Source of the DNA: Promethearchaeota archaeon
GTDB lineage: Archaea; Asgardarchaeota; Lokiarchaeia; Sigyniarchaeales; SOKP01
Length of the DNA: 64,000 nt
Direction of reading: 5' to 3'
NCBI GenBank assembly: GCA_030599585.1
Contig: JAUVNS010000019.1
Coordinates: 1 to 64,000 of the forward strand
The notes below the pieces were generated by a model that saw nothing but the letters and a program-made list of their open reading frames with translations, ran no database searches and was not told the DNA's origin. How positions within the stretch are numbered: position 1 is the stretch's first letter; the number at the start of each line of letters is the position of its first letter. Both the position numbers and the translations under genes were made by a program. This document shows, one piece after another, positions 19,632 to 64,000 of the stretch.

Positions 19632-19649
19632 TAAAATAAACTATCATCT

Positions 19650-19772: not shown

Positions 19773-19786
19773 TTAAGCAAAATAAG

Positions 19787-51000: not shown

Positions 51001-54000
51001 ATACGGAGTCAAAATCGTACAGATTTTCGTTAAAACAGTAAATAATTTCTCTGTCCGTAGATGCGGTCGAATAGGTAAGGTTGTTATTTGTTTCTCCGGC
51101 ACCAGATACGATTGCTGAATCCGTATAATCAAAGTCATCCCAGCTATCAATTTTGTGAAACACTTGATTTTTAATTTCTAGAACTATTATTTCTCCGCTA
51201 TCAATTGCGATTTCAGGATACAAATCAGTAATTACTCCTGGTAAAGAAAAACTCGAAATTTCGCTTCCATCAATGAAGAATTTCCACGTAGGTATATCGT
51301 TTACCTTTTCACGAGTGATCTCCGCTAAGTGAGTCCCTTCTTCAAGTTGGGCTGCGTCGTAAGAATAGAAATTAGACCCCCCTATCTTAAATTTTACCGT
51401 TGTTGGACTAGTAGGGAGTTTGTTAAAGGTAAATGAGGCTCGATATTTCGCGTTGTCTGAATTATCGATATAATCTAATTGAGGATATGTTTTTGCTCGG
51501 TCGTTAAGCGAAATCTTTCCAGATTTTAATAACACTCCGCCGTTTTCTGCTTCTTCGACATTTCCTAACCCTCCTAAATCTAAGTTTATGTCGTTTAAGT
51601 TGTCTTTATCGGTTAACACAACGCATTGAAATTGCCTAAGAATAAGCTCAGAGGCACCTGTGGACCCATCTAATAATTTTAAAGTATCGCCTGTGTATCC
51701 TTGTAGTTTTACAGTAAAAGTAATTTTTCCATCTGAGACAAAGGAATTACTCAATTCCGATTTGTCAACCTTAAGGTAATCGTAATTGTAATCGTGTTCT
51801 TCGGATACGTCGTCGTTTGGATAGAAAGGGGTTTTTTGTTCGTATAAAAACTTAAATACGTCGTTCTCGTCTTGAGTGAAAAGACCTTCGCTAATGTATT
51901 CTGAATCGTATATGAAATTGGCTTCCAAGGCAGCATTACTGGGTTTTAAATACTTATTGCCGTATGTGCCATAGTCTATTGCCGTGGAATATATCGATTC
52001 TCCAAAATTAATCGTTTTATATTTCACTAACTCTTTAGTAGCGTGATTTAAATCTAGGTTTGTGGTTTCAAAACTTTGTCCAAAATTAGTGTTATCTAAA
52101 GAGATGAAAATGTTGTCTTCTTCTCCAACATCAAAATTGTCAAACGATTGTTCTCCAGGAATAGGATATAAAACATGCCCAAACGAAGTAGATATCAAAA
52201 TACCTTGAATGGACTCAGCGTCCTCATTATGATCTAGTTGAAATTCAACTTTTAGGTATAAATCATCACCTGCGTTATCTTTTTCTTTCCAAACGCTCAT
52301 GGTGTAATCTTTTTGAGTTAATGCGTCTTCAAAACTTGATGCTGAAGGATCGTAGCTACTTCCGTCTTGATCGATAAACGTAACATCACTTATTGTTGGT
52401 TTATACGCTGCAACGTTGTCGATCCCGAATATTGACCCCATTTCTGCGGTTAACGCCGAATAATCGATGAGATCTTGTCGCATGTCGACAGTGGTAGATA
52501 AAGTTAAGTTTTCTGCCCATACAGAATCAATATACGAATTTTCGTACAAACTTTGGAAATCGTCAGGGCGGTTAAAATCTTGACCCGTTTCGAATTGGGC
52601 TAAATCAGAACTCATAGAAACTTCTAATCCTGAGGTGGAAATCGTACCGTAATCCATTCGGTTGTTCCCAAACTCAGTGAGCAAGGATAAGTCAGACACA
52701 GAATTAATTCCGCTCTTCCAAAAATCGCCTTCAGATAGAATATATGGATGTCCCGTGGTAACATCGTTAAATTGATAGTTCCAATCTTCGTATTGGGTTC
52801 CGTAATAGAAAGTCCAATGGTTAAGATCGTTTGGATTAAGTAATTGAAACGCAAGGTTATCTGCTTTTATTTGAGAGTTTTTAGCAGCTATATTACTTAC
52901 GTGTTCGTATTCTGCCGTGTTATATTGAGCCGATAATAGCCCGGAAGCTTCCGCTATACTGGCTTCGTAGAAATACCTTACCTCGAAGTACTCATCGGCG
53001 GCGTTTTCCCAGTGCCACTCGTTTTTGTAGCATATAAGTTGTTTCTTATCGCCGCTAATCTTATAACCAGACGGATTTATTTCTCTTAACGAGTCGTATA
53101 TATAAGCACCACCTCCAGTGGCGTAATCTCGATATTTATCGAATTCGTACACGTTGATAACTTCTATTGCGGGATAGTTCGATAATGGAACTAAAGCCGT
53201 ATCGGTATCGTCAGGTAATTGGTATTCAAACATATCCCAGCTTCTAAACGTGTCAACTGCGTAAAATACTGGAGTTGCAGAAAGTGATATCACGCCTGTA
53301 TCTATGGTAGTTTTCCAAAGTCCTTGAGAGGAGGATATAAGAACCGATTCTAAGTAATCTTCTTTAGAATTAACGATTTGGAAAATTCTAAAGTCGTAGA
53401 TTTCGGACGCAAAAGATTCTAACCCCGTATCAAGGGAAAATTCGGTTTTATACCAGTTGTCTGTAGAGGTATCTAATATGTAATAAAATACTTTATCGTT
53501 TTCGTTGTATGACTTCATAGAAACGCCAACAACTACGACTTCTCCAATCTCACACATAAACGAGTTTATTTCTATAATTGCTCCCTTTATTGCGGTTTCA
53601 AAAATTATCAGCGAAGTTGGTGTTAAGTCTTTATTAATGGAATACATCGACGAGTTAATTATTCCGTTAAACGAAGGGTTAATAGTTCCAAAATACAGCT
53701 TATCGCCAATAAGGCGCATTGTACTATGAACTTTCTGACCGTATATCTGGGTGGCGTCGCTCACTTGAGTTTTCGTTAAGGAAGCATCAAAATCAAGTTG
53801 CGCAACGTAGTTGACTTCGTTAGAGGAATTACTAACGCTCACATACATGGTAAAGGATTGGTCGCTCGTGAAATCTAGTAAAAAGTCTTTGAAAATCGCG
53901 TCAGGAAGTGGTTCGGGTAAAGTAATACTAGAAACCGTTGTTGTTTGATTTAAATAATACGATAAAGACGAACTATTGTAAATATAGAAAGAAATTGCAT

Positions 54001-57000
54001 CGGAATCGGATAATTTGTTAAATATTACTAAGTCTGTATAATTATCGTTGTTTAAGTAATAATTTGATATTTTCTTTCCAATTAACGAAAATCCTAAGGG
54101 AATGGTGAAATTAACGAACCATTGATTGTTTGAATCGTTAAAAGAATATACGTATATATCACCATTTAGCCCGACTAAGAACGGATGTATAGCTCCGGTA
54201 TCGTCAAAGGTTCCATAAGAGCCGTAGAAATAATTACTTGGCTGTTGATGGTATGTATAATTGATAGGAAGATAAGATCGTTGGTTTGGCATTAATTTAT
54301 AGAAAGTGTTGTTGCTCACCTGCCAATCGACCGTAAAATACCCATTAGAAGTGGTTGAAGTGCCCATAGGAAGCCAAATTTGGTCGGAATAATCGTAATA
54401 ACTCATATCAACAGTTACGTCAGAAGTATTCGCGTTATCGATCCAATTGTCAACAAAACCGCTAAATTGGATCGGATTTTCGGTGTAATTAGTGTTGCTG
54501 CTATGATATACAATATCGCCAAAATTTAACGCTCCTTCTAAACTACTAGAATCTTCGTTGAAAATATAGAGGTTTTGTATGACAACGAACATATTATCCG
54601 CCTTATCGTAAATTTCTGCTTTGACGTGGGTGAGACCTTCCGCAAAATTTTTCCCGTTTAATTCGAATTGGTAAGTTGGAAACGGAATTGTAAGCGGATC
54701 AAAAACCATTTCGCCTAAATAATAATTACTGGCGTTGAATAACTTAATTTTTTCAATGTTGTGCAAGAATCGATAGCCGTGCTTCACGTAATAGGACTGA
54801 CTAGTAGCGTTAAACACGTATCCTGGAGTGAAGTATAACGTTTTGTGATCATGATCGGAACTGCCAAACATAATGTTTCCGGCGTCTCCGGTCTTACCAA
54901 GCTCCCAGTAAATACCACCGTTGGTCGTATTAGCGGTAAGTAGACCAAAACTGCCTTCTGGTGTAAGGTCGTCGTAATGAGCTTGATATCTTTGTGTGAC
55001 AAGAGTATTGCCGTATAAATCTTCTACTTCGAAGTAAAACTCAAATCGATCCCTCGTGTATTTACGAGGAAAGTTGTAGTGGGGATCGTCGTTCTCGAAC
55101 CCAAGCAGATTGTCTGTCCAACTCTCGGTCATCCCACTCAAGAAAGCAGATATGTCTAAGTTATTTAATACCCAATTTTGCTGGTCGTAAGAAAACGATG
55201 CATTCCAACCAAAATTGCACTTAATTCCTTTTAAAATTATATCTGTAGTAAGGTAGTTCTTATAGCGTTCGTCAAATGTAATTTCTTGCGTTACGCTATC
55301 AAAAAAGAATGGGATCGAAACACCGTCTAAAGTAACTGCCTCTTCAATTGCGTATACATTCAAATTGAGGAGTGAAATTACCTCATCGTTCCATAGAATC
55401 GAATTTTCGTAATATTTACCCGTTGCGTTCGTCCAATAATCGTGGAAAGAATAAGTGGTACGATTAGTTGCTAAATAAAGATAATTGGATGAGTTCCAAG
55501 AATTCCTTCTCATAATTACGTTAAACCAGTTTTTATTACTACCTTGTTCTTCGTAAATTGCAGGACTTGCTAAGGTTTTTAGTACGAATATCTTAACTGA
55601 CGTAATCTGAGAAATGTCTGCTAATTCGAGTTCTAAATCTGTATTATCGTTAAAATAAATATCGTTGCTAAAACTATGGCTATTCATTAACTTGCCCGTT
55701 ATCTGAGGTGGAGAGTTATCTACGATAATAGGGTACTTGAACGTAAAGACGTTGTTTGTATAATCCGTAAAAACAAAAGTAAGGTTATGGGAGCCATCTG
55801 GAATCCTGTTAGAATCGATGATCAGATCGTCGAAGTCGTAAGGTAGGTTATAATAAGTTCCAAGATCGACATATTCGCTATTCGCGTAAATATGGAGCGA
55901 GTATATCGATTTGTTAAATAAACCAGTACCGTCGCTATTAATTCGCATTAAGCTGGAACCGTTAAACAAGAAACCGCTTTGTAAAGTCTCAGGGAAAAAT
56001 CCAAGAACCGTATCGTCAAAGTAAATGTTAAATTCGTCTACAGATAAATACCCAAGGGTATCGTTCGAGATTACCCTAATTATTTGAGTTTGATTAAGTA
56101 AGGGTTCGTTAAAATAGAAACTGAACACGCCTCCTATAACTTCTGTGCTCCCGCTAACGGCTCGCCAATCAGATTCGTAAATTTGAAGGAAAACAGAATC
56201 AACTCCAGAAGGATCGGTTATTTCGAAAGCAACCATGCCCGAAGTATGGTTAAGGAATACGCCGTCCTCGAACTGAGGGTCAACTACTGGTCCCGAGTGA
56301 TCAACTACCATTCCAAGGTAAGATTGTACAATTTCTGTGTTGTGAATGTTATAGGCAGTAATTTCTAAATTATAAACATCTGAAACAAAGTTAAAAACGT
56401 CGAGATTTAAAACGAACGAAAAGTTGTTTAACATCGTGGTGGAGTATGTATACTCGACGATAATTTTATATGTATCGTGCTCTATATAATCATCGTTAAA
56501 TTGAATAAATAAGGTCTTATTTTCGTTATTTGTGTCGTAATAATAAAATATATCACTAGGTTGTAATATCGTTGCGTAACCCTCGTCGTTATTCGAATCA
56601 ATGAATAGACGGGTAATTTCAAACATGCCCGAAGGAACGGGTTTAACCTTTAAAACTTGCTGACCGGTGATAGAACGGGTAGTTTGAACCGTGAGGTTCG
56701 CTTTATTGTTAAGATCTACGTTTGGAACAAAAGAGTATTCGTAAGCGTTTCCATAGGTTTGACCGATAAACTTTATGTTGGGACGCGTATTGTAATATGG
56801 CATGCCCCAGACACTTTGGTACAAACTCGTAATATTAAGCAAGAATGTATTAGAAGTAGGGAATGTTTTGTCTGTGTGGTGATAAATACCGTCGTAATTT
56901 CCTTCTTGCAAAGCCATAGAGTTGCCATTGCTATTGTTGCATAACAACCGAATTGCACCTATAGGAATCGATCGATTGAAGAACCTGAAATCGTCAATAC

Positions 57001-60000
57001 TGCCATCAAATAAGTTATTTGCCCAAGTTTCGTTTGCAAATCGGGCGCCAATTGCTCCATAAGTTGGAGAGTTACCCGTATAATTCTCGTTATGGGTTAC
57101 TGAAGGCCCAAATTGAATTCCGTTCTTGAAAAAAGTTACGATGCCGTTTTCTTTTGTAATTCCAAAGTGCACCCAGGTGCCTATCTCAAATAGTTCTGGA
57201 CCACTTACAACTGAACCGCCAGCAGGAGGGTTGTGATCGAAAGATAATGCTCCATTCTCAAGAACGCTTAAGTAATTTCGAACAAGTTCTCCGCTTTCAT
57301 ATTCTCCATAAAGAGCAATAGTGTTATTTAACTCATTTAATTTAACCCAACCAGTTATAGCAAATGAGTCTTGACCGTTTTCAAAGATAGGAGAGGTTTG
57401 TATATAATCGTACACAATTATTTTTAGCATTTCTAAATCTAATTTAAAGGACTCAAGTTGGTTTTCGCCATAAAACTTAAGTAACACCTCGTAATTACCA
57501 TCGAAATGATCTGAACTAAGATTGTAAATATTCTTGGAAAAAGTGGAAAAAGAGCTTATACTAACGTTCTCCCACTTGCTTAGAGAGTAATCCCACACGG
57601 AAAAAATTATTGGTTGCGTTATGTTAGTGCGATAACCATAGTAAAGCCCAATGTTGTCAGTGGAATCGCTAATTCCCAAGGGTAATTTAACAGTAAAGTT
57701 TAATGTAGGCGGAACAACAGCTCTATAATCGTAAAGCTCCACTTTATTCACGATTAGCTGAGTATTATTTCCAATTATAACGAAAGTAACGTTAAAATCT
57801 TCAAAAACGGATAACCCTTTACCATCCATAAAGGAAGAAACGTTAAATTGACTTTGCGTAGTTTCTGAGTTGTTAGTTGCGTAAATCGCGGAATGCCATT
57901 GACCGTCCGCTTTGATCTCGTATATAATCTCGAATTTATTTTCCCTCCCATAATTATTATAATAATCGAAACTGTCGCTAGTAGTATTAATCGAATAATC
58001 AAGATTAATAATAAACATACCATTTTCTTTTTCAAATTGAGATAGACTGCTCTCGTCCGGATAAGCTAGTTCGAATTCTTGTTGCAAAAGCATCTGATTG
58101 CTTAAATTGAGACACTTGAAAACAAATGTATACCTTAAATTTACTATCTCTAATAGTCCATTAGATATATTGAACTTAAGGCCAAAACTATCTTTGCTGG
58201 TCGAATCGAACTCAAAAGTATTTGAAAAATGGTGCCAAGAGCTATCTCTAACTAAAGCGGATTCAGACGAATCGATATAAAATGTTGCGAAATCGCTGAA
58301 ATCAGTATGGTCTTTCGTAAAATTGTAATCAAAGTCGATTGATACATCGTATAGTTTTTTGTAATTTGAATATCCCGAATCATATCTATCTAAAAAATTA
58401 CTGCTTATACTTTTGGTTATATCTGCAAAAACTTCACCCGTCGATTTAACGGAAGTATAGTCTACTCTCAGTTGATCGATATCTAAATCGAACGCTGATA
58501 AAGAGTTTGCTAGATATCTTACCTTAACGGTATTTGAACCGTCGTAGTAATCAGAAGTCAACTCAAATGGACTTGAATCGGAAATTAAATTCCAACCAGT
58601 CCCCGACCCTGTGAACTTCCAAGCGTAAAAGTCAATAGTAGCTGAAGAAGAGTGGGCGAAATTTATTTCGTCTAGCGTATAAGCGTAAACATCTGAAACA
58701 GACCAAGAAACATCAGCGTCCAGGTAATACATGTCAATGACAGGTTTATAATCTACTCTGGCTTGGTCTAAAGTCATACTATGTGCGGAAGATTGAACTG
58801 ATGTGTATACTCTCATCAATACTTTATTAGTGCCGTCTTGGTAATACTCGTCGTAAGTCGCTAGGCTTTGCGAAAAGCTGTTACCCATACCATGCCATCC
58901 TGGAGCGTCCCAATCGTATATTTCTGCCGTCCCACCGTTTCCTGCGTAATAAACCCAATCCATCGAGTATACGTTACTCGGGATCATGCTAAACTCGGCA
59001 TAGATTCTGTGATTCGGAGTTCCTCGGGTAAGAACGGTTTCTACCGAGTCCACACTGACAGTATAAGCGCTACCTGTAAGTTTAAACCAGGCAACGTAAA
59101 CTCGAAGGTCGTTTACTTGGCTTTGGGTTAACGATAATCCTGACCACGTGAAATACGATGTCCAAGTCCAAGAATCGCCCACAATTGCGGTTTTAGCTGA
59201 CGAGTACACACCCGTACCTATTCTCCACCTTACTGAAACTCCACAAAATGCTGGAGTTGATTCTTTTATTCGTGCTCTGATCTTAACGTCAGTTACTTCA
59301 GTACCTGCGACCCAAGAAGGGTTTTGGATGCCAACTTCGCAATTTGTATTTTGTCCGGATAAGTAATCGCTTCCCGTACCGGTATCGTCAATTTTCTCGT
59401 GAGCAGAACCGCTAGATGGATATAACGTCCAAGTATTTGAATAAGTATAATCTGGACGGAGGGTTGGATAATTTGCAACGTTAGTGAAATATTTCCCAGA
59501 ATTTATCGTAGTTTCGTCCGCATCGTCACCTAAAAGATCTCCGTAAGGAGTAGCTAAACTGCCGTAGGTGAAAGAGAAATCTCCAAGTTGAGCAGGTACT
59601 TTTGCTAATTGGGAACCGCCAGATGGTACGAGCTCGGAAGAAATTGTGGAATTGGTGTCCCCTGATGAAGTTAAATTTCCATAAGGAGCCGAATAATCGC
59701 CTAAAATCACGCTAAAATCGCTCGGTTGACTGGGGGTTAAATGATCGTTATAAGATACGAATTCCGAAGAAAGATCGCCGTTACTAAATGAGGAACTAGT
59801 AAAGGCGGAATTGTAATTTAAGTTCCAGTTTGTCCAATCCTCAGATAAAGTTTCAGTAGGGAGTGATGTGGTCATGGATAAAGGATTCATAAAGAACGAG
59901 TCGTTATATCCATCTGGAAAGTAAAGATGACGCATATAAGAACTCTGAAAAGAACTAAGAGAGTCAGCCCACAAAAGCTCGTAATAAGGTTCGTGCTTTT

Positions 60001-63000
60001 CGTAGTTGTAATCAAAATCAAACCCTTCTGAGGTAAATTGAGTAGCTGAACTGTCTATTTTTTCTAAATTTCCACTCCAGTCTGAGCTTCCTTGTTCAAG
60101 AGTGAAGTCTTGAGGTTGAGATGGAATAACTGTAATGCTATTAAGCGTTAATGAATGGTCTCCAACTTTTCCTTGGGTCCAGCTTTCAATTCCTATTAAG
60201 CTACCATCATTGTTCCCTGTTGCGTCGTAAATTACGAGTCCATTTCCTTCGTCAAATTTCCACCAAGTACGCTCGGTGTTCTCCCCTACATTATAGTAAT
60301 TTTTATCGATTTGGAGGTCGTTAATGTAAATGTTAGTATCTAATCCTAACGAGACCGTAAATGGAATTAACAGTTCTATAGATTGGGATTTTAGATCGGA
60401 AGCCTTGATCTTTAAAATTTGCGTATCTACCGTTTGGTCTTCGAAATCAAAATCTATTGGATCGAAGGTAATTAAATGTTGAAAGTATAGCCCTTCCGCT
60501 TCAGGGTCAATTTTCTCAAAAGTATACACTTTATTCCCAACTGTCAAGTTTAAAACTTTTAAATCTTGAGCTATTGGGTAAATTTTAAAATAAAAAGGTT
60601 CAAATATATCGTAAATACGATCAAAAGCGTAATTCTCTACGTACAGGTCACTGAAATAATTCTGGTCGTTGACAAAAGAGAATAGCAATTCGTTTCCATC
60701 GTTTCCAGAGGTATCGTATCCTACTATTTTAAAATCTACGTCTCCATCGGGCATGTATTTAACGTTCCATTGAAGAGTATCATTTGCGCCATAAACCGTG
60801 AGATCGTCTCTCCAACCTTTTCCGTAGTTATAGGACAGTCGATAAGATTTGAAATCGTTATTAGAAGAACTTATTGTGCCGTTTACAAGCCCGTCGAACT
60901 CAGAGGTCGCTGTCCAAGAACCACTCGCTTGCTGAATTTGATATAAAACATCGTTTGGATTGGTATCCACGGTAATCGATGGGCCGTCAAGGTCGAGTTC
61001 TAGATCATTTTTCGTAAGGTTAAGGTTATAACTTCCAAATAAAGGATAGGTAACTTTCAATTCTACAACAATGTTAAAAAGAAGCGACTCCTCCCAAGGC
61101 AAATTAATAAATGGCGCTGAAAAGGGTGAGTAAGTAGCGTTGTTTATTAAAGTCCAATTAGCGTATCCCTGTTCTACCGCCCAAAATTTCGCGTAGTCTA
61201 TCCTAGATTCTATTACATCAGAAATTACCAGCGAGATTTCGTCTTTTTTACTTACTGTATTGCTAACTTTTATAGCGTTTTTAAAAGGACTAACAATCGT
61301 TTTGTTTTCGTAGGTATCAAAAGAACTAAAAGCTCCGTTATACGCCTCCGATATTGCGTACCACGTACCGTTTGGAACCGATTCGCTCGAAATATAGTAA
61401 GCAAAATCTCCGCTAGAATCTGATAATTCTACCATTTGAGTCCAATTATCTTTGTTTTGAGTGGTAGGAACGTCGTTGTACATATAATAAATTACCTTAG
61501 TAAGCGAAACTCCGTTGTTGTTGGTGGTAGTAAACTTAATATCGCTGTTGACTTCTTGACTGTCGGAGATCGGCTCCCAATCGTTAATTCCTATCGAAAA
61601 TGCTTTGCAAGTGATATTTGGAGGGTTATTAATTACGGTAAGATTGGAAACAGTAAGACTTCCTTGCGATCCCTTGTTGTTTTGGAACACTGCTTTCAGT
61701 TCGTATATAGTATCGTCGACTAAATTTGTGGTGTTCCAAGTAAAATTGAAGTAAGCAAAATTATTTTCGAAACTATATTGCGAAACGTTGGCAACCAAAT
61801 CCCACCCTGAATAATTACCCATATTTTTGTAATTGTAATACAAAGCAGCCCATTCGAAATCGTTCCCGATCGCTTTAACTTCCACGGGATATAACCCAGA
61901 AACTACCGTAAAAGATTCTACGTTAACAAATTCGGGCAATATATCCCCTTGAACGAATTCAAACTTTACGCTATCTATGATCACCCCCCATCGACTCCTA
62001 AATTCTTTCTCCGATGTGATATAAAAAGCGTCTTTCAACTGTGCTGTGAGTTCCAGGAATAAATAATCGGTGTCAGTAACTATGTCGTCCCCGTAAATGT
62101 ATATTTTAATAGGATCTTTGGTATAGTAATATTTTTGACCTAAATCGTTTGTTACGTTGCTAAAATCGTTAAAATCAAATTCTTGTATTTTAATAGAAGC
62201 GTTTGAATATTCAGAAAGAATTTTTGAGCTGAATTGATTGAATATTTCTAATTTAAACTTTAATAATTCTGATTTAAACTCGTCGGTAGCTTTATCTCGA
62301 TCCGTTCCGTTTTGATACTCAAAAAATGGGTGAACGGTTATAATAGATCTTAAATAATAATCTAAGGTATCTTCAGACTCTAAATTAGGCGTTACTATTC
62401 CAACCCGACCGGTAGAATCTGGACCGTCGATTAAGAGTTCGTCTTGATACGAATCGTAATAACCAAAACAATCGGTTAGATGAGTGTTTATAAGATTGAG
62501 GTAGTTCGCAGGACAAGTATTTTCAACTGTTTTAATTAAAACTGGTAAGTAGTTGTAGTTGTTCCCTTCTTGAGACGCCGGATAATAAGCATCGCTTGTG
62601 GACGAAAAAGCGATAAAATCGTCTCGATTATCTATTTCAATGTCGAAGTCGCTGAGTAAGTTCAAATCTGCTCCTTTGCTTACCTTTTCAAAAAAGCCGT
62701 AAGGGTTAGATTCCTTAGTAAGCAAATACAACTGATTGTTTGCAGACCCGTTTCTCCAATCAATCGACAACTTTAGACTGTTGAAAATAAGATTGACGCC
62801 GTTTTGAATGTTATACGAGTTCAAGTCGTATGTTTTTACCTTTACGTTTAACACTAAATAAACTACTTGCTCGTTGCTTTCGTATAAATCTTTAAGAAGA
62901 GCAAAAAGAGCCTGCTTTTCAGTTTGTGTAAGTTGGAAATATTCTTCTTTGTTGTGAATTTCAACTGAGAAGTTCTCTAAGTTAAGCGTATAATATAAGT

Positions 63001-64000
63001 TTCCAAAATTTTTAGACCATTTAGAGTTGAGATTAATGTCTTGGAGAGAATACCCGGTCCAAGAATTGTATCTAATTTCGTTAGAGATAACTACGTCGGG
63101 ATTGTCGTCGCTTTCGACCATAACCATTAATTCACATTCTAAGTTAGAATATGGAAGCGAGGACATGTGTTCGAATTGGTCGAAAAATAAACTAATGGCG
63201 TCAAAATCGATTAGTAAGTCAATTGAATTATCGTTAGATTGTTCTAGATATGGATCCACGAAAGCTGTAACATTTTCTAAATTCAATTTGTTAGAAATCA
63301 AAAATTCGCTTTGAGCGTAAGTGCTTGACTCGTGTGACTTAGTTAACACGCCAAACGACTCCGAAGAGAAATTAGTTGGATTAAGTTTGAAAGAAAGGTA
63401 TACGTTATCTAAACCGACTTGATATTGGTCGAGGTCGGCAGTCTTGTTTAAACTCCAATCGTCTTTTACTAAGTTAAACCTTAAATTGAAGTGTTCCGTG
63501 AAGTTAATAGGGTAGGGGAATTGTACTTCGAAAGGGTAGATGTGATTTTGAACTTTGGTATCAGTTGCGTTAATTTCTGAAAACGATAAGGAAGTTTGCG
63601 ATAGGTTGTAAAAATACCTTAAGTATTCGGGGTAATAGGTAGCGAGGTTATTCTCGACCCAATTATCCAAAGTTTGAGCGTTCCAATCTGTATCTAAAAT
63701 TACGCACTGAGTACCTGCAAATTCTAAGGAAACGATATATCGCAACCTATCTTCTGACTCGAGCAGGTCGTTATCAAACACGCTTAAGTCTAAATCGAAG
63801 TATACGCTCATATTAGCTGAAAATGCACTATCGGTAAAAAGGATGGGCATGAAGTCAGCAGAAAGCGTGCTAAAAGAGTTGAGATCGGCTCTCGCGCACG
63901 AAGTATATTCTACTGTCCAAGAGTTCGAGTTATTGGTTGAAAAGGTCCAAAACACTCCGTTTGACCAAAACGCGTCTGGATTTTGCTCTTCGGTACTTTC
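27050..64000 (-). CDS. Giant (>12,300 aa) surface/adhesin-like protein with LamG, Ig-like, lectin-like and Dx[DN]xDG modules, a hydrophobic helical region and a C-terminal PD-(D/E)xK-like nuclease; 5'-truncated by the window
   Basis: Uninterrupted frame. The 15 codons upstream of the tracked GTG (63955) are also open (ESTEEQNPDAFWSNG), so the true start lies beyond 64000. LamG motifs WWKFDEGNG / GTWVHFG / FDGSIDDFRFFNR; Ig-like D..[AGS]P motifs; C-terminal GTYTH..IE...E..V...VDLSI...VVDFT...K...K.YQ..DR.L.IV. Confidence 0.9.
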   Translation of the reverse strand, partial: ESTEEQNPDAFWSNGVFWTFSTNNSNSWTVEYTSCARADLNSFSTLSADFMPILFTDSAFSANMSVYFDLDLSVFDNDLLESEDRLRYIVSLEFAGTQCVILDTDWNAQTLDNWVENNLATYYPEYLRYFYNLSQTSLSFSEINATDTKVQNHIYPFEVQFPYPINFTEHFNLRFNLVKDDWSLNKTADLDQYQVGLDNVYLSFKLNPTNFSSESFGVLTKSHESSTYAQSEFLISNKLNLENVTAFVDPYLEQSNDNSIDLLIDFDAISLFFDQFEHMSSLPYSNLECELMVMVESDDNPDVVISNEIRYNSWTGYSLQDINLNSKWSKNFGNLYYTLNLENFSVEIHNKEEYFQLTQTEKQALFALLKDLYESNEQVVYLVLNVKVKTYDLNSYNIQNGVNLIFNSLKLSIDWRNGSANNQLYLLTKESNPYGFFEKVSKGADLNLLSDFDIEIDNRDDFIAFSSTSDAYYPASQEGNNYNYLPVLIKTVENTCPANYLNLINTHLTDCFGYYDSYQDELLIDGPDSTGRVGIVTPNLESEDTLDYYLRSIITVHPFFEYQNGTDRDKATDEFKSELLKFKLEIFNQFSSKILSEYSNASIKIQEFDFNDFSNVTNDLGQKYYYTKDPIKIYIYGDDIVTDTDYLFLELTAQLKDAFYITSEKEFRSRWGVIIDSVKFEFVQGDILPEFVNVESFTVVSGLYPVEVKAIGNDFEWAALYYNYKNMGNYSGWDLVANVSQYSFENNFAYFNFTWNTTNLVDDTIYELKAVFQNNKGSQGSLTVSNLTVINNPPNITCKAFSIGINDWEPISDSQEVNSDIKFTTTNNNGVSLTKVIYYMYNDVPTTQNKDNWTQMVELSDSSGDFAYYISSESVPNGTWYAISEAYNGAFSSFDTYENKTIVSPFKNAIKVSNTVSKKDEISLVISDVIESRIDYAKFWAVEQGYANWTLINNATYSPFSAPFINLPWEESLLFNIVVELKVTYPLFGSYNLNLTKNDLELDLDGPSITVDTNPNDVLYQIQQASGSWTATSEFDGLVNGTISSSNNDFKSYRLSYNYGKGWRDDLTVYGANDTLQWNVKYMPDGDVDFKIVGYDTSGNDGNELLFSFVNDQNYFSDLYVENYAFDRIYDIFEPFYFKIYPIAQDLKVLNLTVGNKVYTFEKIDPEAEGLYFQHLITFDPIDFDFEDQTVDTQILKIKASDLKSQSIELLIPFTVSLGLDTNIYINDLQIDKNYYNVGENTERTWWKFDEGNGLVIYDATGNNDGSLIGIESWTQGKVGDHSLTLNSITVIPSQPQDFTLEQGSSDWSGNLEKIDSSATQFTSEGFDFDYNYEKHEPYYELLWADSLSSFQSSYMRHLYFPDGYNDSFFMNPLSMTTSLPTETLSEDWTNWNLNYNSAFTSSSFSNGDLSSEFVSYNDHLTPSQPSDFSVILGDYSAPYGNLTSSGDTNSTISSELVPSGGSQLAKVPAQLGDFSFTYGSLATPYGDLLGDDADETTINSGKYFTNVANYPTLRPDYTYSNTWTLYPSSGSAHEKIDDTGTGSDYLSGQNTNCEVGIQNPSWVAGTEVTDVKIRARIKESTPAFCGVSVRWRIGTGVYSSAKTAIVGDSWTWTSYFTWSGLSLTQSQVNDLRVYVAWFKLTGSAYTVSVDSVETVLTRGTPNHRIYAEFSMIPSNVYSMDWVYYAGNGGTAEIYDWDAPGWHGMGNSFSQSLATYDEYYQDGTNKVLMRVYTSVQSSAHSMTLDQARVDYKPVIDMYYLDADVSWSVSDVYAYTLDEINFAHSSSATIDFYAWKFTGSGTGWNLISDSSPFELTSDYYDGSNTVKVRYLANSLSAFDLDIDQLRVDYTSVKSTGEVFADITKSISSNFLDRYDSGYSNYKKLYDVSIDFDYNFTKDHTDFSDFATFYIDSSESALVRDSSWHHFSNTFEFDSTSKDSFGLKFNISNGLLEIVNLRYTFVFKCLNLSNQMLLQQEFELAYPDESSLSQFEKENGMFIINLDYSINTTSDSFDYYNNYGRENKFEIIYEIKADGQWHSAIYATNNSETTQSQFNVSSFMDGKGLSVFEDFNVTFVIIGNNTQLIVNKVELYDYRAVVPPTLNFTVKLPLGISDSTDNIGLYYGYRTNITQPIIFSVWDYSLSKWENVSISSFSTFSKNIYNLSSDHFDGNYEVLLKFYGENQLESFKLDLEMLKIIVYDYIQTSPIFENGQDSFAITGWVKLNELNNTIALYGEYESGELVRNYLSVLENGALSFDHNPPAGGSVVSGPELFEIGTWVHFGITKENGIVTFFKNGIQFGPSVTHNENYTGNSPTYGAIGARFANETWANNLFDGSIDDFRFFNRSIPIGAIRLLCNNSNGNSMALQEGNYDGIYHHTDKTFPTSNTFLLNITSLYQSVWGMPYYNTRPNIKFIGQTYGNAYEYSFVPNVDLNNKANLTVQTTRSITGQQVLKVKPVPSGMFEITRLFIDSNNDEGYATILQPSDIFYYYDTNNENKTLFIQFNDDYIEHDTYKIIVEYTYSTTMLNNFSFVLNLDVFNFVSDVYNLEITAYNIHNTEIVQSYLGMVVDHSGPVVDPQFEDGVFLNHTSGMVAFEITDPSGVDSVFLQIYESDWRAVSGSTEVIGGVFSFYFNEPLLNQTQIIRVISNDTLGYLSVDEFNIYFDDTVLGFFPETLQSGFLFNGSSLMRINSDGTGLFNKSIYSLHIYANSEYVDLGTYYNLPYDFDDLIIDSNRIPDGSHNLTFVFTDYTNNVFTFKYPIIVDNSPPQITGKLMNSHSFSNDIYFNDNTDLELELADISQITSVKIFVLKTLASPAIYEEQGSNKNWFNVIMRRNSWNSSNYLYLATNRTTYSFHDYWTNATGKYYENSILWNDEVISLLNLNVYAIEEAVTLDGVSIPFFFDSVTQEITFDERYKNYLTTDIILKGIKCNFGWNASFSYDQQNWVLNNLDISAFLSGMTESWTDNLLGFENDDPHYNFPRKYTRDRFEFYFEVEDLYGNTLVTQRYQAHYDDLTPEGSFGLLTANTTNGGIYWELGKTGDAGNIMFGSSDHDHKTLYFTPGYVFNATSQSYYVKHGYRFLHNIEKIKLFNASNYYLGEMVFDPLTIPFPTYQFELNGKNFAEGLTHVKAEIYDKADNMFVVIQNLYIFNEDSSSLEGALNFGDIVYHSSNTNYTENPIQFSGFVDNWIDNANTSDVTVDMSYYDYSDQIWLPMGTSTTSNGYFTVDWQVSNNTFYKLMPNQRSYLPINYTYHQQPSNYFYGSYGTFDDTGAIHPFLVGLNGDIYVYSFNDSNNQWFVNFTIPLGFSLIGKKISNYYLNNDNYTDLVIFNKLSDSDAISFYIYNSSSLSYYLNQTTTVSSITLPEPLPDAIFKDFLLDFTSDQSFTMYVSVSNSSNEVNYVAQLDFDASLTKTQVSDATQIYGQKVHSTMRLIGDKLYFGTINPSFNGIINSSMYSINKDLTPTSLIIFETAIKGAIIEINSFMCEIGEVVVVGVSMKSYNENDKVFYYILDTSTDNWYKTEFSLDTGLESFASEIYDFRIFQIVNSKEDYLESVLISSSQGLWKTTIDTGVISLSATPVFYAVDTFRSWDMFEYQLPDDTDTALVPLSNYPAIEVINVYEFDKYRDYATGGGAYIYDSLREINPSGYKISGDKKQLICYKNEWHWENAADEYFEVRYFYEASIAEASGLLSAQYNTAEYEHVSNIAAKNSQIKADNLAFQLLNPNDLNHWTFYYGTQYEDWNYQFNDVTTGHPYILSEGDFWKSGINSVSDLSLLTEFGNNRMDYGTISTSGLEVSMSSDLAQFETGQDFNRPDDFQSLYENSYIDSVWAENLTLSTTVDMRQDLIDYSALTAEMGSIFGIDNVAAYKPTISDVTFIDQDGSSYDPSASSFEDALTQKDYTMSVWKEKDNAGDDLYLKVEFQLDHNEDAESIQGILISTSFGHVLYPIPGEQSFDNFDVGEEDNIFISLDNTNFGQSFETTNLDLNHATKELVKYKTINFGESIYSTAIDYGTYGNKYLKPSNAALEANFIYDSEYISEGLFTQDENDVFKFLYEQKTPFYPNDDVSEEHDYNYDYLKVDKSELSNSFVSDGKITFTVKLQGYTGDTLKLLDGSTGASELILRQFQCVVLTDKDNLNDINLDLGGLGNVEEAENGGVLLKSGKISLNDRAKTYPQLDYIDNSDNAKYRASFTFNKLPTSPTTVKFKIGGSNFYSYDAAQLEEGTHLAEITREKVNDIPTWKFFIDGSEISSFSLPGVITDLYPEIAIDSGEIIVLEIKNQVFHKIDSWDDFDYTDSAIVSGAGETNNNLTYSTASTDREIIYCFNENLYDFDSVFEDLRLWSDIDFYTDYSTSSPDFDPAYQYYQMNPLEGVESSTFFVDSVSDANWVVINGQAYPEEGYNLPALTKYYDDEWVRRSNFMEPSNELSFSFESIPNREYISDMEFAYKFRIRGSESEEVSGFEITNNFFTSLAHRFEIRSSFDNFQIPSEFWEVYTGSYLVSDYPMIYCDNEFDLTDIYRNTDSLELDSSNIGFYLNTWVNWLDVDWFTLNIDYSDEPVTIEDRLLNTEYGLPVSDSYEFYVLNNLYDKISLDSDANFNSNGEKLTTIAPQISSINSLIFDSSFGANTLSFGFGSKATYPNFAKNGDSISATNKINDFRIVPQLIDTEGKGLSDTTYPYETSWWQEQEFVSAMPFNLTFPEITPENIDGISDIIVKLQYNVSVANFNSWSWRPNLKIYDTLNKNWLSYYGTAYAYNDIEDKLVWPMEEPVTDHDQYDSVQRLHDHNYYFGNNDGKESDNCTIIFKISNDIEGYDLKNFFSFVGGKANMTLLGLTYVIPGTFNEGNWEVTYDENFDTKGRMAVSSELKYNNSYARTFLTSDVIHSNVQLSNIAHGQEFDAPASLQQPWIDLNGQLGSISVDDIARIVNVYGINENPKMVSVLVDPTPEDPIGSDFYRFDRTEGRLYLPFTAILNYEKFNFTMEVWSDLTPIGGKDYEPNGNFENVTIVENVIGVKSDGSIDYFTKNFEQDYSFYSEEPYFVHLNSDNSIDYIEFSESINLSPYTNIRAVVHEIYNNDNNNREEKINLLQHSAMKFPFAIAETENSIFLGLNLILNFSCGFVGKESVTNILSSSDYDVNLDFYQRVSGSNTYFGTLHLEDYAQVFYRYDTYNLDIDLKGSGLDLQKLFECFGEGKELLINITADFKGIHRGKRLHGQFALEVLNAEIDADLQDERPSIDMIELSSSKKGVQFVNMTSDFMHNPHFADITELYGYDDLTGLALINSQNYRYGSLKEFNSLSQQQGTHTGDLSSVIDDDNDYLTLTSEATSGVGLDYIFNGPDVPRQSEDFVISEGDAIYNGDFNLLDDNYSTVVANSDYYKYVPSQTQSETIQNIDDITVNYGSSVTGDISNTYADDSNYVYINSETILGGQLVNIIFDFDPSITGKDYYLSCHLENTNGISGTLYVNNNVFATGSTINFDSLIIADVDTINFIASDQFTSFSSRIYYLKLLEVSALTYAEGESDKAGDLEFKDDDLSTFTSRYIFGTPSTTTLTPNLDSSPLQWDESGDHYDRIQSADSDYISSEGAVSPYKIDRHRYTDVALSSGYLAYKVKITLRALKTVSDASVGLFVKFHDGTGYSSEKLVSGLTTTYQSFNVEWTDLGLDDSAVDSLEVALVAKNLIFGFVAGDVQVDMVSVEITYAEVLEVRIEAASKITLTSDALYAEDIKLYYAYSTSADASTFGFDIWNYNTESWENIDGTRSFSAELTKDINNNYFDSEYNIIVRFKGSNTAQTAFEFELDQLKVYYENHTASFTSKIKLNTNLETKVLKYAYRTNISQSIAFSIYNYNTEAWFTLESGVSKSFTEQTFTLNNAFYSQENEILLKFLGTNATLVLDDTPETIENGRFKIEIDLLQVDSQIIPEQETTGVEQYWLGITFESDDSNFWLLYGDDSGYHHLATLSSTTETTFKISFSPTLLESRLQLRIINNQSATPVDFVIDRLYLFSDSTDNINDLIIESSEEYDLFYANLEFNNPPSLVDSREINIPLTFEEIKQGVYYVFGFEHLNAPFSVDRVKVIDSENDQNKIVLSTDYYHIAGDKIFVDSVLYTEITPDTILNVDLSYIYDSWEKDEYVDTQPFLHNFSVSADQRIEAVSLVVKFTEIPQIRSWFFGTTDSQDMYKKLSNKLYKDVNLLELEFYDYFNDVWISVPYVVYDLNDNDARTFAYFIDRVSVDFINFDGLTEDNFIYQLKYRFKIDQNYFGDEYSTKTFFDIEELTVQMFYNPIDSVISLNPQLTFSADITDVIHPDGDESVTAHINELSFDLDWERNVYISDAPVDGVDVNEMFNNYTLYSNYVSVYIVDKYGTKHDIDKSNGKYYIKHTNEDDLYDFIQYKFGKYFVDFFLSYEWELKGIIQYAYDAMFSIHATVEVTKWDVRAKITTINKELITPKVLGENSSIFIGDINGDSEQDIGFSGGFLENIDNNDRAFIKYQFSYLYDSNDDDIFNTTSDSRVYFVEHISDVCFTSTDLEGFLYYNEYNMNKTIILGEDKILDLTTSSNVDGASLFSSIESGGEGGGSGDSFKVIRGTAVISASSTTITITEGVDYTLESGQDSTTCFIRLTNTRLTGMGQTSGGRNSATVSELDNWAVRIQNPDNIATSITFQRAGTDLDCRVTWEILQYIGSSGDNEIIVRDVDITTCSGTTSYADGASISTISDSNKVVVFITGQYGVASSATNVQYGLFTASLEGSGPYTPRFTRGQSVASNDGVSYAVVEFAGSNWKDVQRLDVSNEATVWVTETGVGHTDVLITSVGGYALTNYSRAFIHQQFRFDSAAGLNDAGDNIDLISNTQLRIRNKDTAGVRNKVIWIIESTADSMVVEHGDFFLNDGGASEEHTWTETITTVSNMDSTSIFAQCSTDGGGTYFPRGATDYRLTAANEITFTECDHGQEKVITYDVVQWPSSISGGSSPTTNATKIGDFTTVENTINKFLYNWTNIQSFFSGSLVSGDNFTLIVELSDVDFGTKKNISYNCVLDFEAPTSTIAIGDGQTDYSLNNFAAPWTLIDVNSNDNLASIINHNDYYYNEPITEEYQVKVFDHNDNLAYQSGFLALSDNFDELFDLGIPVSGYEDHSLYYYVIEVRLTDAAGNSITNSSYLGDSYSYDGGIPKILVSNEVTIQFEDNLIDVNRLYSGLGDIVNFTLIGPDNSELKNKEIQLKSGNFFIKTTLWNETTQSYQIVLDSLYDLVLRSDNMFKNQLYANYEIDRKLNWDSVGEDYYAFAKHASQEEPLGLRFNLQELKSDILYIPEKEGFIMNDFLSLQEMYCYKWDAQLENFEDRYAFNSSEYSVATNGTISWNIDLDQLNVKDNEIIVVYYGSDYADVLKNPDSNGMYFELLIPNIYSTHGTIETLDIEFRDFENNVFYYRLDALDLDKYYQNASLYKRVIPGLSEMLEIPIYVDFVKLAASNIKVPFDISTLMAITFIVVDAPVWPGSLSMYDPDLEFTVINYPYQIFGVSEISVYDLLSNDSQLTAFFSEFGYDYNVIGSSIEIEKYNTELTNFTVFDSDKQQLNFTGNNLLSFADSIDVYFNLKYATELNPLYEYTTPLMGMYDTLSDTLLGLSFMDWDDSVNKYYCRFTLIEDISPDYSVKFMFLPFDVEKQVNSTQEILIDLVPETLSKINLWNEREVIFNEDYSFTLISEFVEKFNSDLSLSGSILDSKTYYRNREVIEYKATDPVGEFTLSEYEIDLHGLIGDSDFIDIDNFKLEFIDRENKNKITNLFEIVDGQEFNYATNVIEGCWISYYAYHMIDHPNKFMLIVNWTSDYDHLIAYDTELLLTYRVMQGKKITPVSFVDAEDALTPVDFRVFDYGTFEWVDRSTFKEPINLLNIQTENSSLIAGQISDVSPNYILDNSSIGSGIIDLVKVWKDTGSAYEILDPANFHYEIVNMAGIDALNFTYTGTGSVDVIFEYTFIPVLKLNHYSIDSFDSSVFVRFGEHEIKVQMVEGTDYDLIGTNRNKVIFYAFNTSIDQYYSISEQFSYYIEYEGYLTEEVNLASHLILEFLDEDGIWKPIKKIPLGILGDFDESFFLGEGGLQLPLGEVIIARLGYLPNNLTNYNNEHLEVEYSSYNSVYNTTQDIYELFTITVLGKTSSIEYVPTEYTTSVDNGVIIPSRQYYTTTNLYETLHEGEPYTALNYQKTITDSYDFKFRLQDVEGKAIANNLVWLEVGIKPKAGLNFKTIDWETESGEYIDSEALGNAFFSDEGSETCFGPGVMQAGTSRMLTRPELWEYKDPDSGEYGFYSSYIWDYQITNEFGVVSFNVSFNQDLIADFARVFDESMFSSGSITRDSLEDYRLYVRVIHAPVFNAGDMAFVDKSEVYGSNNDNVFDLSRVSELDDYDFSATQFYRGSYGEGLITVHAEDLLLGVPDLLVYQMESEEEDIFAFDIEIAEADLIPDANIMTEEEMANQFDQENLIPELGSSHNYLYDGSPVVVTITDYSGNSPFAEGSPQFIAYVDQNGQVTIDDATGLTDYYLTQLDPGVYQVNIHMPASSYTKEVYRFCTLEVRPENWMKFGEPTMTLDLLNWYDSGWGGASFGEDYGFYEDIYPRLTGYLATLHSQIGLNDYVNFKISARARDIGSQTAWNDLEWFELGDEDVWISSLVYDGLYYFEYPLGQDGAMLMGKEVQLNVTVDASYNQTGMIEDNREQQLHILNMSIVSSDIRTDMIIYQTYSDLDTNEDFYIGDTSIPYGVERYFEFTDDIETYGVESDDALLNLRGYEDLSIEVVEVRGMINYREEIISSLQYNFDTSGKMTLNEGPIADLDNHSDLIISYAIQIDPSEVLSFTFSEQEGFSNSQLIFNPITCDHIDNLGVFYSIFNETYNINVNGKTTLYKGYPNIIPANIKIFSIDDLDGTDLSDTYILNDLGSQIQVEFATLSDKDIYLSYGVSTYKLDRGYQRIDMNVYDAVRKLSELHSSNEIYDYESGPTPIDLIEVPDEPENPMESNSPIIIVPFLRDNKTTVSFEYLSLLYDTTLSGTFYLDDCALENAANLKPILATFTITTEDGESYFDYVDIIPTSGENEIDFEISLQPIYATIGYTTFDIQIDFLSYGDKPNIVPYVIISSFNLTADDRILETVSKPRVDSEGNLKVSTIINTQNYAQIYTDRLTDAYDVVDNAWFTIAVEGFNGYGDLVELYRDENNDLAFETQEDDQFYFQCLEENDRRLVDSLGFHLNAYDLELPEYIEGEVNLYAGKGTNTYGDEYVSDLEFNINWEQDYVVDIESFDEDIFNENFVLSELPLTSDGIFVEGELYLHHRIDITEPQNIITTDLPSGVEFAISIPDSTEKIDNIEISNIDRIARPWDWVESWQGFALTEDDYLGYNPDNALSYPTSFVKLTPSVDYEIVLTEEGQTQVHFFRQVSEIVSILGSDEIQIDFHSVHEFTSSDYAIAEDQNTYNSELHWQFPVSEAVEWSNFAYHPDLTTTDTFNASFYQISEYAPVEDFKSFVVDEFQFYPTEYNFTEFTFTDFTDYGGELFYGEVNLTYGGEFQERYDNIQPFGMVVQTSSGERYIDAKYIYGWQHDLSEYPVYTFALSKYDFREIDILEDSEILLTYYYPRESLSYTASQDDILFGDGYSFVVKDELGIEIDLIEKILSVEGNNITFTENMKLELVIGEKFTVEYWAKTRGGLLETKHMFIEVQPWEMQFYNDYYPFSGSSIMSPLYYNLSANYQYQMALNYRLVEKNTITLDFALDGHNIYNDVAELYIDYNQPLLDYDSTPIIFAYFYNITGDKDYFKEQDMTYDSGMKRLSIDLKDGEGVSNYYFDKPTQTGAIGEGDVVYVEIGADFHNKYQYYHNLEIDLTNEAYTLLNWEVAQDPENNLAPNFESDYFVFDYDSESPVGKGMVQEVMAILNETNALTYYLSEELSDPDGWDSFDTLIMRLGIMNPEVISSIKAEFYYGASTKIGETEITLDMIESETGSVYITLPESSSWDQFTTTNNASIVFTPEFLTETDFYAYYYEEGYPYLQTIQWIESDTIEGYLPIDLERLMFDTGEEVLVLNGEFEYVYSISEIGNRIDSFDYNGVQNAYDISVHNISLPTSYLDGLENAIEMYDNDILFLKYNSTLPKTISLAVGEMILQKSPYIENFRKGEPGEPDYVPFAEVSLLGINTDGEEYSVELDLFENREKMVAWESQLDLTPFENEFLDTYRQKVFNVSFEDISSTFKVIDSEGIDHCYITDIVISSNDPRYQIIVDSFFMFEFDENATLYDSDIFEVYPNNNMEKFYYGDYEDIYSEHVIFDSGSNPPLYYDDSGVNETFYFDAFDTAGNYYYFDDHLFGETVSQGVYDIYWNNMYSEHYNAWYYDEQTTELELEGLREDYNPHIEKFRYLYLSWADDNAWEEWRLIDQPNVNTSVLGITFEWYDEATEDFDSVLYNQSLSEFETRHIAIENVYPYDTNAISGEFELSQDYTPAQDLAIYSITGFYFNESEYEFNLLNCYVVSGEESIYIESETGVELSDFDRIVVLLSFTSGVLSDYSQFKLLDNAFNHPDTPAWTKNDSIYVDFEYTDLDYFLLMEDYEVGSEDSLFEHLEYTRNVNFVQNEQDIFTLDVNYQSIDFENFEAKNDLKNVLLMTDFDEDGTHESVLEKLDITGDGEFNVFKYGSVDPAGEISYYTIVYEADPVQAQVDKDFESMSTEWFELEQANIGVAKRIMLRTTITNAIEEKNYYSVQKDTDLDGFMDEETSYEVIYNNIEITTYTKEITEIKPEIELQQKATFSEELRVSSFTSSKMSQTITFSDLEAGEVVSTRVYEDAFPNELSEVSNVENYLIPAISSSITSQTTDLSAVFELSHSSDNVPAEFDKLTTIESGEIITENLLTSTQSISIPGTYSYNGQGFDSYSVDAIKSTPNEGTYWLNDLKSSSLSNRDQEGYYLYLDTSDDSIYETVIVMDKYDNVVGIGFDYDLDSKFHPGKTLPVEKDIVWSENYLGDSFTDNYIHFRESDKEIGVFNEPTFSDVLFDVGKMVFTESSDLIELAAEMATNQFEEQTDLGTLVLDIFQQFLATTAGMVAGVVSGSPLGYMLGYLAVSIPFQIVKIMEQENYIAHRTFRLDSSAGDTTLGEKFWFDDMYGNIMPITIFGSFGGVYAPVYGQTDKHSYNAEIIVREFNFEEEKASSLTTSYSLPKLDYWLSTRNLAGYSDFDDSLVIGFLQSTGVINPVFDNIGIPEFNHAKSSAYYIKNQVQEETGDNRDNYLDTIIPTIDYDTEHDRFSPRYSFIDSMGGIPAPEFYTEYPVFVSEDSSAVDQYGSIYKVIAIDDPEETVSIEIQLFDEESSLETDIASIEVYVVWAQTEPIKSTKSSHVNTFLPDQFKVDLSAGIITIDSDPALSMILNSYISKTDELDQDFGSVSYSQPKILFEIKVEKYRSVSDVRDLTSEQLSKIATAQAIEAAILEYNYQFNLATQTQFGFHELVYTAIVTAISTALSIVFTAGMGTIINSFVGEEGIKQVSSNVLKNLLGTFSDAAKSFSFAGVIGAVVKEIGQELVIDPWIESTVSGLVRRAGGDAILQIVLSSIAESGREAISGPLSSMFSSQQAQPKSLSERLDSKYASKGLRPTMQQFLTEISEYKTEIASQQEQNAEQMTLLRGANKVLSFVSLATGFTASFLLGPFGALAFTTIATYCLTEDISIKSVFSKVFNPVKIAISKSKVADYVRNNKKQVLVALGIGVASLGWMALQTLIPALSGFGVFGNLGISFGGITIGMTFDINKGENRKIDNLYYSIAQMTHHLYKILKREMFRFDKKFDFSKDLQYLKEKFDEYYAIWAKNHKGEYWIQKGATKINILSTKDGHSYEWFLDKFLEAYEDVHGTRDDETTKFFRDYGNFMQFIKGQAFENLRTPIKPRVVLIESLIDIFPKFWGVPFSYTRLAKLIFTKDTASLFLGKRRIDKRIDFTQLLEIDYNTYKLTEARFDSIGIKISSDQLKKLKSTVSQFIKEFVFLNPFGKPYINKYDKETSKVYVESKYDLYRGLYFLESENKGRSISFNELIDTIETEMLNPGHFLAYGNMLRENRNPYKKIRSYILSQPKNSHLRDVTHKAFKLHSRSLKGYLPNIVGTYTHLPIELLIMMSLKSHSFTIGVESEQPVGRLGKQVDLSIPVSATFLTVIGTLSRIIPNGIRELVVDFTHEAKRPKLKDYYITKKYYKEYQSKDRFLFIVLTHPSFTKSDIDQLTKDLNQRNPAFAKNIKIMLLDEFLITLKVQEKIRSKIEDLYNLVDDCLQRNDLDLRDESLVKLKNIYEQAKLILKFPLSQLRLTQFKGSFFNID

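Follow-up and report, generated by a model that had tools for sequence, protein, structure and literature searches.

How can the two parts of one LamG domain lie 909 residues apart in the same chain, and how is everything between them arranged? The question arises from a stretch of 64,000 nucleotides (nt) of DNA from a Promethearchaeota archaeon (Lokiarchaeia, Sigyniarchaeales, SOKP01; assembly GCA_030599585.1, contig JAUVNS010000019.1, positions 1 to 64,000), which we call the window and whose minus strand carries, at 27050..64000, a giant open frame that is still open at the window edge. A previous inspection of the letters (here, the sequence-only reading) had proposed that this LamG domain is split by several domains, each inserted into the one before. 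Our analysis supports the proposal and extends it: residues (aa) 1245-2355 of the window part of the frame quite probably form one side branch built by recursive domain insertion. Sequence comparisons show a split LamG domain, a mirrored order of the modules inside it, and a host unit made of an opening half (O) and a closing half (C), whose insertion site is fixed while its guests vary. Predicted structures back the outer two levels and the innermost one, and for the middle levels (X and B, see below) the argument comes from sequence grammar only.

The giant gene extends beyond the window to nt 70708 of the contig (locus L017) and comprises 14,552 codons in total (14,552 aa, with ATG as codon 3). 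Residue numbers count inward from the window edge (aa i begins at nt 64000-3(i-1)); in the full protein, the nested segment of ~1,100 residues corresponds to residues 3481-4591. All motifs quoted in the sequence-only reading were located where it had placed them, on the minus strand (as are all features of the segment described below) and within this single open frame.

The first strands of the LamG/concanavalin A (ConA)-like jelly roll, recognized by profile, make up LamG_N (60137..60268, aa 1245-1288; WWKFDEGNG...GKVGDHSLTLNS, with WWKFDEGNG at aa 1246, nt 60265). The remainder of the jelly roll and a C-terminal helix make up LamG_C (56936..57409, aa 2198-2355; DYIQT...FDGSIDDFRFFNR, with DYIQT at aa 2198, nt 57409, and FDGSIDDFRFF at aa 2331). 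The distance between the two, first described as ~2.7 kb, was measured as 909 aa (2.7 kb). Pfam recognizes Laminin_G_3 (PF13385) on aa 2197-2344 only (54.1 bits versus a cutoff of 27.6; profile positions 4-144 of 151). The modeled fold of LamG_C (model residues 961-1121), the one part of the whole-segment model to which the VIA match ranges pointed, gave VIA matches to the pentraxin 4pbp_B (Z, 16.9; root mean square deviation [rmsd], 3.8; 166 aligned), 7zl1_A (Z, 16.6; rmsd, 2.6; 155 aligned), and 6er3_B (Z, 16.3; rmsd, 2.9; 158 aligned), and it resembles carbohydrate-binding module (CBM) family CBM40 and PTX3 with a Z value of ~16. The WxFDE...GKxG strands of the family are present, but 909 aa upstream of the DYV strand instead of adjacent to it. 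The domain is thus discontinuous, and therefore a split member of PF13385 rather than a nonmember.

An exhaustive HMMER search with the segment against 1.84 billion representatives gave 532 matches, and the LamG_N profile matched 186 LamG N-parts. Among the LamG repeats of other proteins, 67 have the part corresponding to segment positions q9-50 followed by that corresponding to q962-1120; the gap between the two is 1 to 28 aa in about half of these repeats, and the others have a longer stretch there without matches. Aligned at the breakpoint, ordinary repeats read ...GKIGxYALDFDGxxDYVev; in the window, GKVGDHSLTLNS (ending in SLTLNS) passes into ITVIPSQPQDF, and DYIQT comes only after 909 aa. 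Some further proteins, few in number (P0064, P0079, P0099, P0124, and P0137), hold 275 to 685 aa at this place, for which reason we regard the loop between FDG and DYV as a recurrent insertion site. When the whole protein was used to look for related loci, only LamG N-part matches were found, in unrelated bacteria and archaea. One locus on a Patescibacteria metagenome-assembled genome contig (JBBRBD010000003.1, L007, 3001-5112), where tblastn joins query positions 10-1106 over only 704 aa, is probably, judged by this alignment, another LamG with a large insert in the identical loop in an unrelated lineage.

Within the gap, three opening segments, O_A (60011..60136, aa 1289-1330; IPSQPQDF at aa 1292), O_B (59606..59746, aa 1419-1465; TPSQPSDF at aa 1422), and O_C (59486..59605, aa 1466-1505; VPAQLGDF at aa 1468), precede a complete central domain, and three closing segments follow it: C_C (58745..59035, aa 1656-1752; ending in TLDQARVDY, aa 1743), C_B (58451..58744, aa 1753-1850; ending in DIDQLRVDY, aa 1840), and C_A (57410..57724, aa 2093-2197; ending in LDLEMLKIIVY, with LDLEMLKI at aa 2187). 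Each is matched by the profile hidden Markov model (HMM) of its class. The claim that the openings resemble one another, and likewise the closings, holds: Smith-Waterman z-scores against 200 shuffles were 9.3 (O_B/O_C), 5.7 (O_A/O_B), and 3.3 (O_A/O_C) for the former and 11.3 (C_C/C_B), 7.4 (C_B/C_A), and 5.4 (C_C/C_A) for the latter, and none of the opening-closing pairs reached a z of >3. The W..W and Y.DG...V..[RK] patterns first seen before the closings are conserved columns of the closing alignment.

At the protein level, the copies are only 18 to 36% identical, and a blastp self-comparison of the segment gave the identity match alone. Direct repeats or a recent duplication were rejected as an explanation because of this low identity. 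The same divergence bears on the idea that the architecture is an artifact, produced in a metagenome-assembled genome by misassembly of repeats or by a chimeric open frame. The genome (4.85 Mb, low G+C, with a small-subunit rRNA that matches the archaeal model from end to end with 1,458 bits) comes in 52 contigs with an estimated contamination of 8.9%, and giant repetitive genes are prone to misassembly; however, repeats this divergent are unlikely to confuse an assembler, the frame is open over its 14,552 codons, and the same architecture is found in independent assemblies (P0003, P0006, and P0008; G004 and G016). We thus consider an artifact extremely unlikely.

The halves measure ~40 aa (O) and ~95 aa (C). 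In one protein, O and C occur uninterrupted, 17 aa apart (P0019:2730-2865), and in some 25 homologous units, they enclose 146 to 223 aa, with conserved flanks around guests that belong to differing families (ConA-like, the central type, and others) and all sit at the same site. Neither 24 C or O+C modules searched against Pfam nor the segment searched against NCBIfam gave any relative of this pair, and a PDB profile search based on the C-module alignment gave no significant match (best E value, 0.18). As far as these comparisons go, O+C is best viewed as a single, undescribed beta-sandwich domain whose guests vary but enter at one fixed site. Among the O+C hosts, B and C stand closest to each other, for the O halves as well as for the C halves, but no single simple event would duplicate both halves around a guest.

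The segment contains a further pair of conserved pieces that the sequence-only reading had overlooked. X_N (59747..60010, aa 1331-1418; HMM match at 1343-1413) occupies ~90 aa after the first opening, and X_C (57725..58450, aa 1851-2092; HMM match at 1855-2090) occupies ~240 aa before the closing half of the same host. Since this pair adds a level, the nest goes one level deeper than first described: the nesting itself stands, but between LamG and the central domain (the tip), there are four hosts instead of three. With seven profile HMMs built on the matches (LamG_N, LamG_C, O, C, X_N, X_C, and the central domain), the segment reads ([{[[*]]}]), that is, LamG( O[ X{ O[ O[ tip ]C ]C }X ]C )LamG, a perfect mirror made of five hosts (LamG, A, X, B, and C) and a tip.

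The same brackets recur among homologues, for instance ([[*]]) in P0006, {[[*]]} in P0008, and [][] in P0090, and the string {[)]}, an X/O/C shell around a ConA-like guest, in at least eight proteins. An O lies within 25 aa after X_N in 22 of 39 homologue cases, and a C lies within 25 aa before X_C in 33 of 40. Taken together, the adjacency of the LamG parts in ordinary repeats, three bracket types strictly mirrored here and in many homologues, O+C found both uninterrupted and with unrelated guests at one site, and the docking predicted for O with C and for LamG_N with LamG_C (see below) uphold the nested topology that had been proposed.

X_N and X_C would together form one host. A profile search of the PDB with X_C gave no sequence relative. 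In P0024:1045-1689, two ConA-like domains interrupt X_C (HMM positions 1-115 and 111-236), which therefore has an insertion site of its own; P0034 is a second database homologue noted in this connection. MAFFT repeatedly drew LamG_C sequences onto X_C (q614-858) when there were many rows, and X_C may, from its sequence behavior, be a distant ConA-like jelly roll.

Structure prediction was applied at three scales. AlphaFold2 (AF2) was run on the whole segment (1,121 aa) with a 38-row alignment (A4) checked row by row; a MAFFT alignment of 145 homologous fragments (A3) was dropped with 119 rows misplaced, and larger sets were unstable, with LamG_C rows placed onto X_C. The mean predicted local distance difference test (pLDDT) value was 68, and the predicted template modeling score (pTM) was 0.32. 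The prediction of the ~1,100-aa segment that the sequence-only reading had named as its check thus speaks neither for nor against the pairing: the C-terminal two thirds came out with confidence (the central domain, C_C, C_B, X_C [pLDDT, 80 to 95], C_A, and LamG_C), and the N-terminal third came out at a pLDDT of 30 to 60.

This uneven outcome would fit beads on a string, with O, X_N, C, and X_C as autonomous, unpaired modules whose arrangement in blocks (openings before closings) is fortuitous and with LamG either the only discontinuous domain or preceded by a degenerate remnant of its N-part; C and X_C were modeled confidently, and the O segments were not. Along similar lines, several proteins (P0038, P0089, and P0023) have tandem runs of four to five C modules without a detected O nearby. 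Such runs, however, occur only in N-terminally truncated entries, and a full stretch shows the openings (five O before five C in C24, a paralogue in the same genome). A string of beads also leaves unexplained the mirrored order of the three module types, for which independent modules give no reason, and the contiguous O+C, as well as the O strands of the inner unit and the O_A-C_A contacts described next. It appears unlikely.

The inner unit (O_C, tip, and C_C) was modeled by itself with AF2 on an alignment of 27 collinear one-level units. Here, the mean pLDDT rose to 86.1 and the pTM to 0.76, the O strands (residues 1-45) reached a pLDDT of 88 to 95, and a 25-residue strand leads from the tip into C. 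A VIA match to 9euf_H spans model residues 1..292 (130 aligned; Z, 9.1; rmsd, 3.3), consistent with a single O+C body surrounding the tip.

At the outer end, a two-chain fold (ESMFold2) was computed for LamG_N plus O_A (aa 1242-1332) against C_A plus LamG_C (aa 2096-2357). It scored 0.76, the best of three controls being 0.04. Of 80 solved complexes, 58 reach this mark, compared with 2 of 110 mismatched pairs; the calibration holds only roughly here, because our own alignments were used, and the score expresses how confident the model is rather than anything measured. Runs agreed in at least 96% of contacts, with a partner pLDDT of at least 85. Among the contacts with the lowest error were DFT 1298-1300 with FTV 2102-2104 and TQFT 1320-1323 with KLDL 2186-2189 (both O_A-C_A), TVI 1290-1292 with LKII 2192-2195 (at the neck), and I1269 with Y2199 (LamG_N-LamG_C). 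The prediction that the two LamG halves fold together is therefore matched by the model (0.76 versus 0.04 for the control), in which they pack into one domain, O docks on C, and a two-stranded neck forms. The LamG share of this result may reflect likeness to solved LamG folds; behind the O/C share, there is no PDB or Pfam sequence relative.

A fold computed from two chains would be equally compatible with pairing in trans, where an O complements a C that belongs to a different molecule, or to a remote region of the same giant chain, in a donor-strand-like manner and the product is a lattice or fiber rather than a closed branch. The equal numbers of O and C suit trans as well as cis complementation, and donor-strand complementation is known from archaeal cannulae (PMC12518558), which we count in favor of trans pairing. 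Against it speak the linkers of only ~5 to 15 aa that join successive O segments and successive C modules, the LamG halves closing around the whole set, the single-chain AF2 model that closes the inner unit in cis (pTM, 0.76), and the fact that one-level units with short guests are common. We judge pairing in trans to be very unlikely.

The tip (59036..59485, aa 1506-1655) gave no Pfam match at E values up to 1. Its modeled structure (inner-unit model residues 46-198) has IFT25 as the best VIA match (2yc2_A; Z, 10.7; rmsd, 2.9; 122 aligned), followed by modules of CBM32, CBM6, CBM35, and CBM36 with Z values of 9 to 10; all these matches have rmsd values of 2.9 to 3.5 over 113 to 128 residues. 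Small phage proteins in the ESM Atlas also resemble it (TM score, 0.74 to 0.76). Such middling Z values indicate a fold class, not a function. As modeled, the tip is a CBM/galactose-binding-like jelly roll; it would bind a glycan or another ligand, and the branch would serve adhesion or ligand binding.

Several observations weigh against recursive insertion over the full depth. The whole-segment model leaves LamG_N, O_A, X_N, O_B, and O_C at a pLDDT of 30 to 60, and some of its LamG matches begin at q870, without LamG_N. The homologues are mutually related, so that their mirrored strings do not count as independent observations, and many are fragments with strings that look unbalanced; the latter we attribute to the shortness of O, which often falls under the threshold. 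The contact of O with C in the inner unit is deduced from model confidence and a single match that spans the unit. For the X level, and for assigning O_B to C_B and O_C to C_C in particular, only order and parsimony can be cited, and X may instead be two side-by-side pieces, since X_C folds confidently without X_N.

The architecture that we propose for the branch is as follows. The jelly roll of a main-chain LamG is broken in the turn between its FDG and DYV strands. From there, the ascending chain would pass through the N-terminal strands of four hosts (O_A, X_N, O_B, and O_C), make the complete CBM/galactose-binding-like jelly roll at the tip, and descend by supplying the C-terminal parts of the hosts in reverse (C_C, C_B, X_C, and C_A) before LamG is completed. 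Since the hosts are left and reentered in mirrored order, two segments of the chain would run through each level and, according to the predictions, pair as a short beta neck at the junctions. The five stacked hosts would act as a stalk, presumably rigid and mechanically strong, that holds a probable glycan- or ligand-binding head away from the main axis of this giant, presumably membrane-anchored surface protein.

The anchoring is suggested by the two ends of the full protein. At the N-terminus, the first ~150 residues are polar, and hydrophobic helices then cluster at roughly aa 145 to 470; the C-terminus has two hydrophobic helices and a basic tail of ~550 aa (window positions ~27050 to 28900). 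The giant protein may be membrane anchored, perhaps at both ends. Because hydrophobic helices stand at both termini, the ~13,000-aa middle would probably be held at both ends outside the cell, as judged from hydrophobicity alone. Pfam found in the 12,316 aa of the protein contained in the window only Laminin_G_3 and one subthreshold Big_3_3 match.

If correct, this arrangement poses a folding problem, as the first LamG strands have to wait through ~900 residues and five other domains for their partner strands. The mirrored brackets provide a simple sequence grammar for reading otherwise unannotatable giant proteins, suggest how such genes grow, and point to where the ligand-binding heads of giant proteins sit.

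The host genome carries two further giant frames with the same modules, C23 (13,906 aa) and C24 (13,858 aa), each with another LamG split around a central-type domain, and frames of 13,771 and 9,240 aa were found in relatives. Within the genus, the distribution is patchy; matches to the segment were found in 3 of the 18 genomes searched. In C24 (aa ~7245 to 8127), five openings, a central domain, and five closings make a five-level homotypic nest, although the openings were read by eye and their HMM support is weak; the nested reading demands equal numbers of openings and closings, and the five of each fit it. With somewhat less than even confidence, we propose that O+C is a dedicated self-inserting display scaffold that can enter its own fixed loop repeatedly (five homotypic levels in C24), that takes unrelated guests, and through which the 13,800- to 14,600-aa proteins of this genus grow as branched trees instead of chains. 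If so, these proteins would carry interchangeable heads on two-stranded stalks, and they would offer a natural system for studying the folding of very deep discontinuous domains as well as a candidate scaffold for protein engineering.

The giant protein may hold more of the same kind. A second branch at ~45990 to 48130 (Matryoshka II; aa ~5291 to 6004) gave HMM matches for an O at 5338, a central domain at 5550-5677, and two closings at 5721-5913; several extra opening-like motifs (GDL...DD.Y) were seen by eye between 5300 and 5541, and openings and closings may thus be equal in number. The flanks of the first branch are conserved with P0006 over ~110 aa after LamG_C (56600-56935, ending in ...MFEITRLFI) and ~75 aa before LamG_N (60269-60499). 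The piece downstream of LamG_C ends like a closing strand, and LamG might itself sit inside a further host. The neighbors of the giant gene encode a leucine-rich repeat protein (22613-24208) and a helix-turn-helix/zinc-ribbon protein (24333-25772); farther away (~14140 to 22506) are a 1,229-aa WD40 protein, nadA, and two convergent ~560-aa proteins with C-terminal NUDIX domains.

In order to put the nest into perspective, we compared it with known systems in which one domain interrupts another. The nearest in setting are the RTX adhesins MpIBP, Vibrio cholerae FrhA, and that of Aeromonas veronii, in which split Ig-like domains project ligand-binding domains outward (PMC10865825). There too, a ligand-binding guest sits within a small, split beta-sandwich host of a very long surface protein, an arrangement that puts both ends of the guest on one side and would hold the head off the axis. 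The RTX hosts, however, carry one guest at one level, whereas five hosts are stacked recursively in the archaeal nest, and the archaeal protein showed in Pfam (12,316 aa) neither RTX repeats nor a type I secretion system signal nor a bacterial array of Ig-like extenders; the likeness drawn here is one of architecture.

RrgA, the pilus tip adhesin of Streptococcus pneumoniae, has D3 inserted in D2 and D2/D3 inserted in D1 (PMC5333627). It shares the Russian-doll topology, the binding domain at the tip, and a chain that returns through its hosts. The halves of the Jo/In host reassociate when expressed apart, which parallels what our two-chain model predicts for LamG_N plus O_A and C_A plus LamG_C. 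In contrast, the hosts of RrgA are two-level and stabilized by isopeptide bonds, and its domain families differ from those of the archaeal nest.

Ordinary tandem Laminin_G_3 repeats of bacterial and archaeal surface proteins have both half motifs and the same fold (Z, 16 to 17), with the halves a few residues apart in about half of the cases instead of 909 aa. As for depth, most of the 48,551 insertion events in a 2026 survey were single-level; the extreme that it named was six levels in cyanobacterial RNA polymerase (PMC13114784), where recursive insertions of the sandwich-barrel hybrid motif (SBHM) build the Si3 region of the beta' subunit (PMC13114784). In the token string of the archaeal segment, each insert is itself interrupted and its halves are mirrored, which is how this ECOD-based survey defines deep recursive nesting (PMC13114784). 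Both nests put a small beta-rich module repeatedly into itself, and their depth is equal (a host and five insertion levels). Si3, however, belongs to a cytoplasmic enzyme, has another fold, and lacks a variable tip guest, whereas in the archaeal nest, homotypic (O+C) and heterotypic (LamG and X) hosts alternate and guests vary between copies.

Thus, the topology is known in principle, and a split LamG is by itself not new. Deep domain nesting is rare, and the archaeal segment would take to great depth a mode of building side branches that is known from adhesin-like proteins. What is new here is the depth, equal to the published extreme and now in an extracellular-type giant protein; the undescribed self-nesting host family with interchangeable guests, for which neither Pfam nor NCBIfam nor the PDB has an entry; and the occurrence in archaeal proteins of some 14,000 aa.

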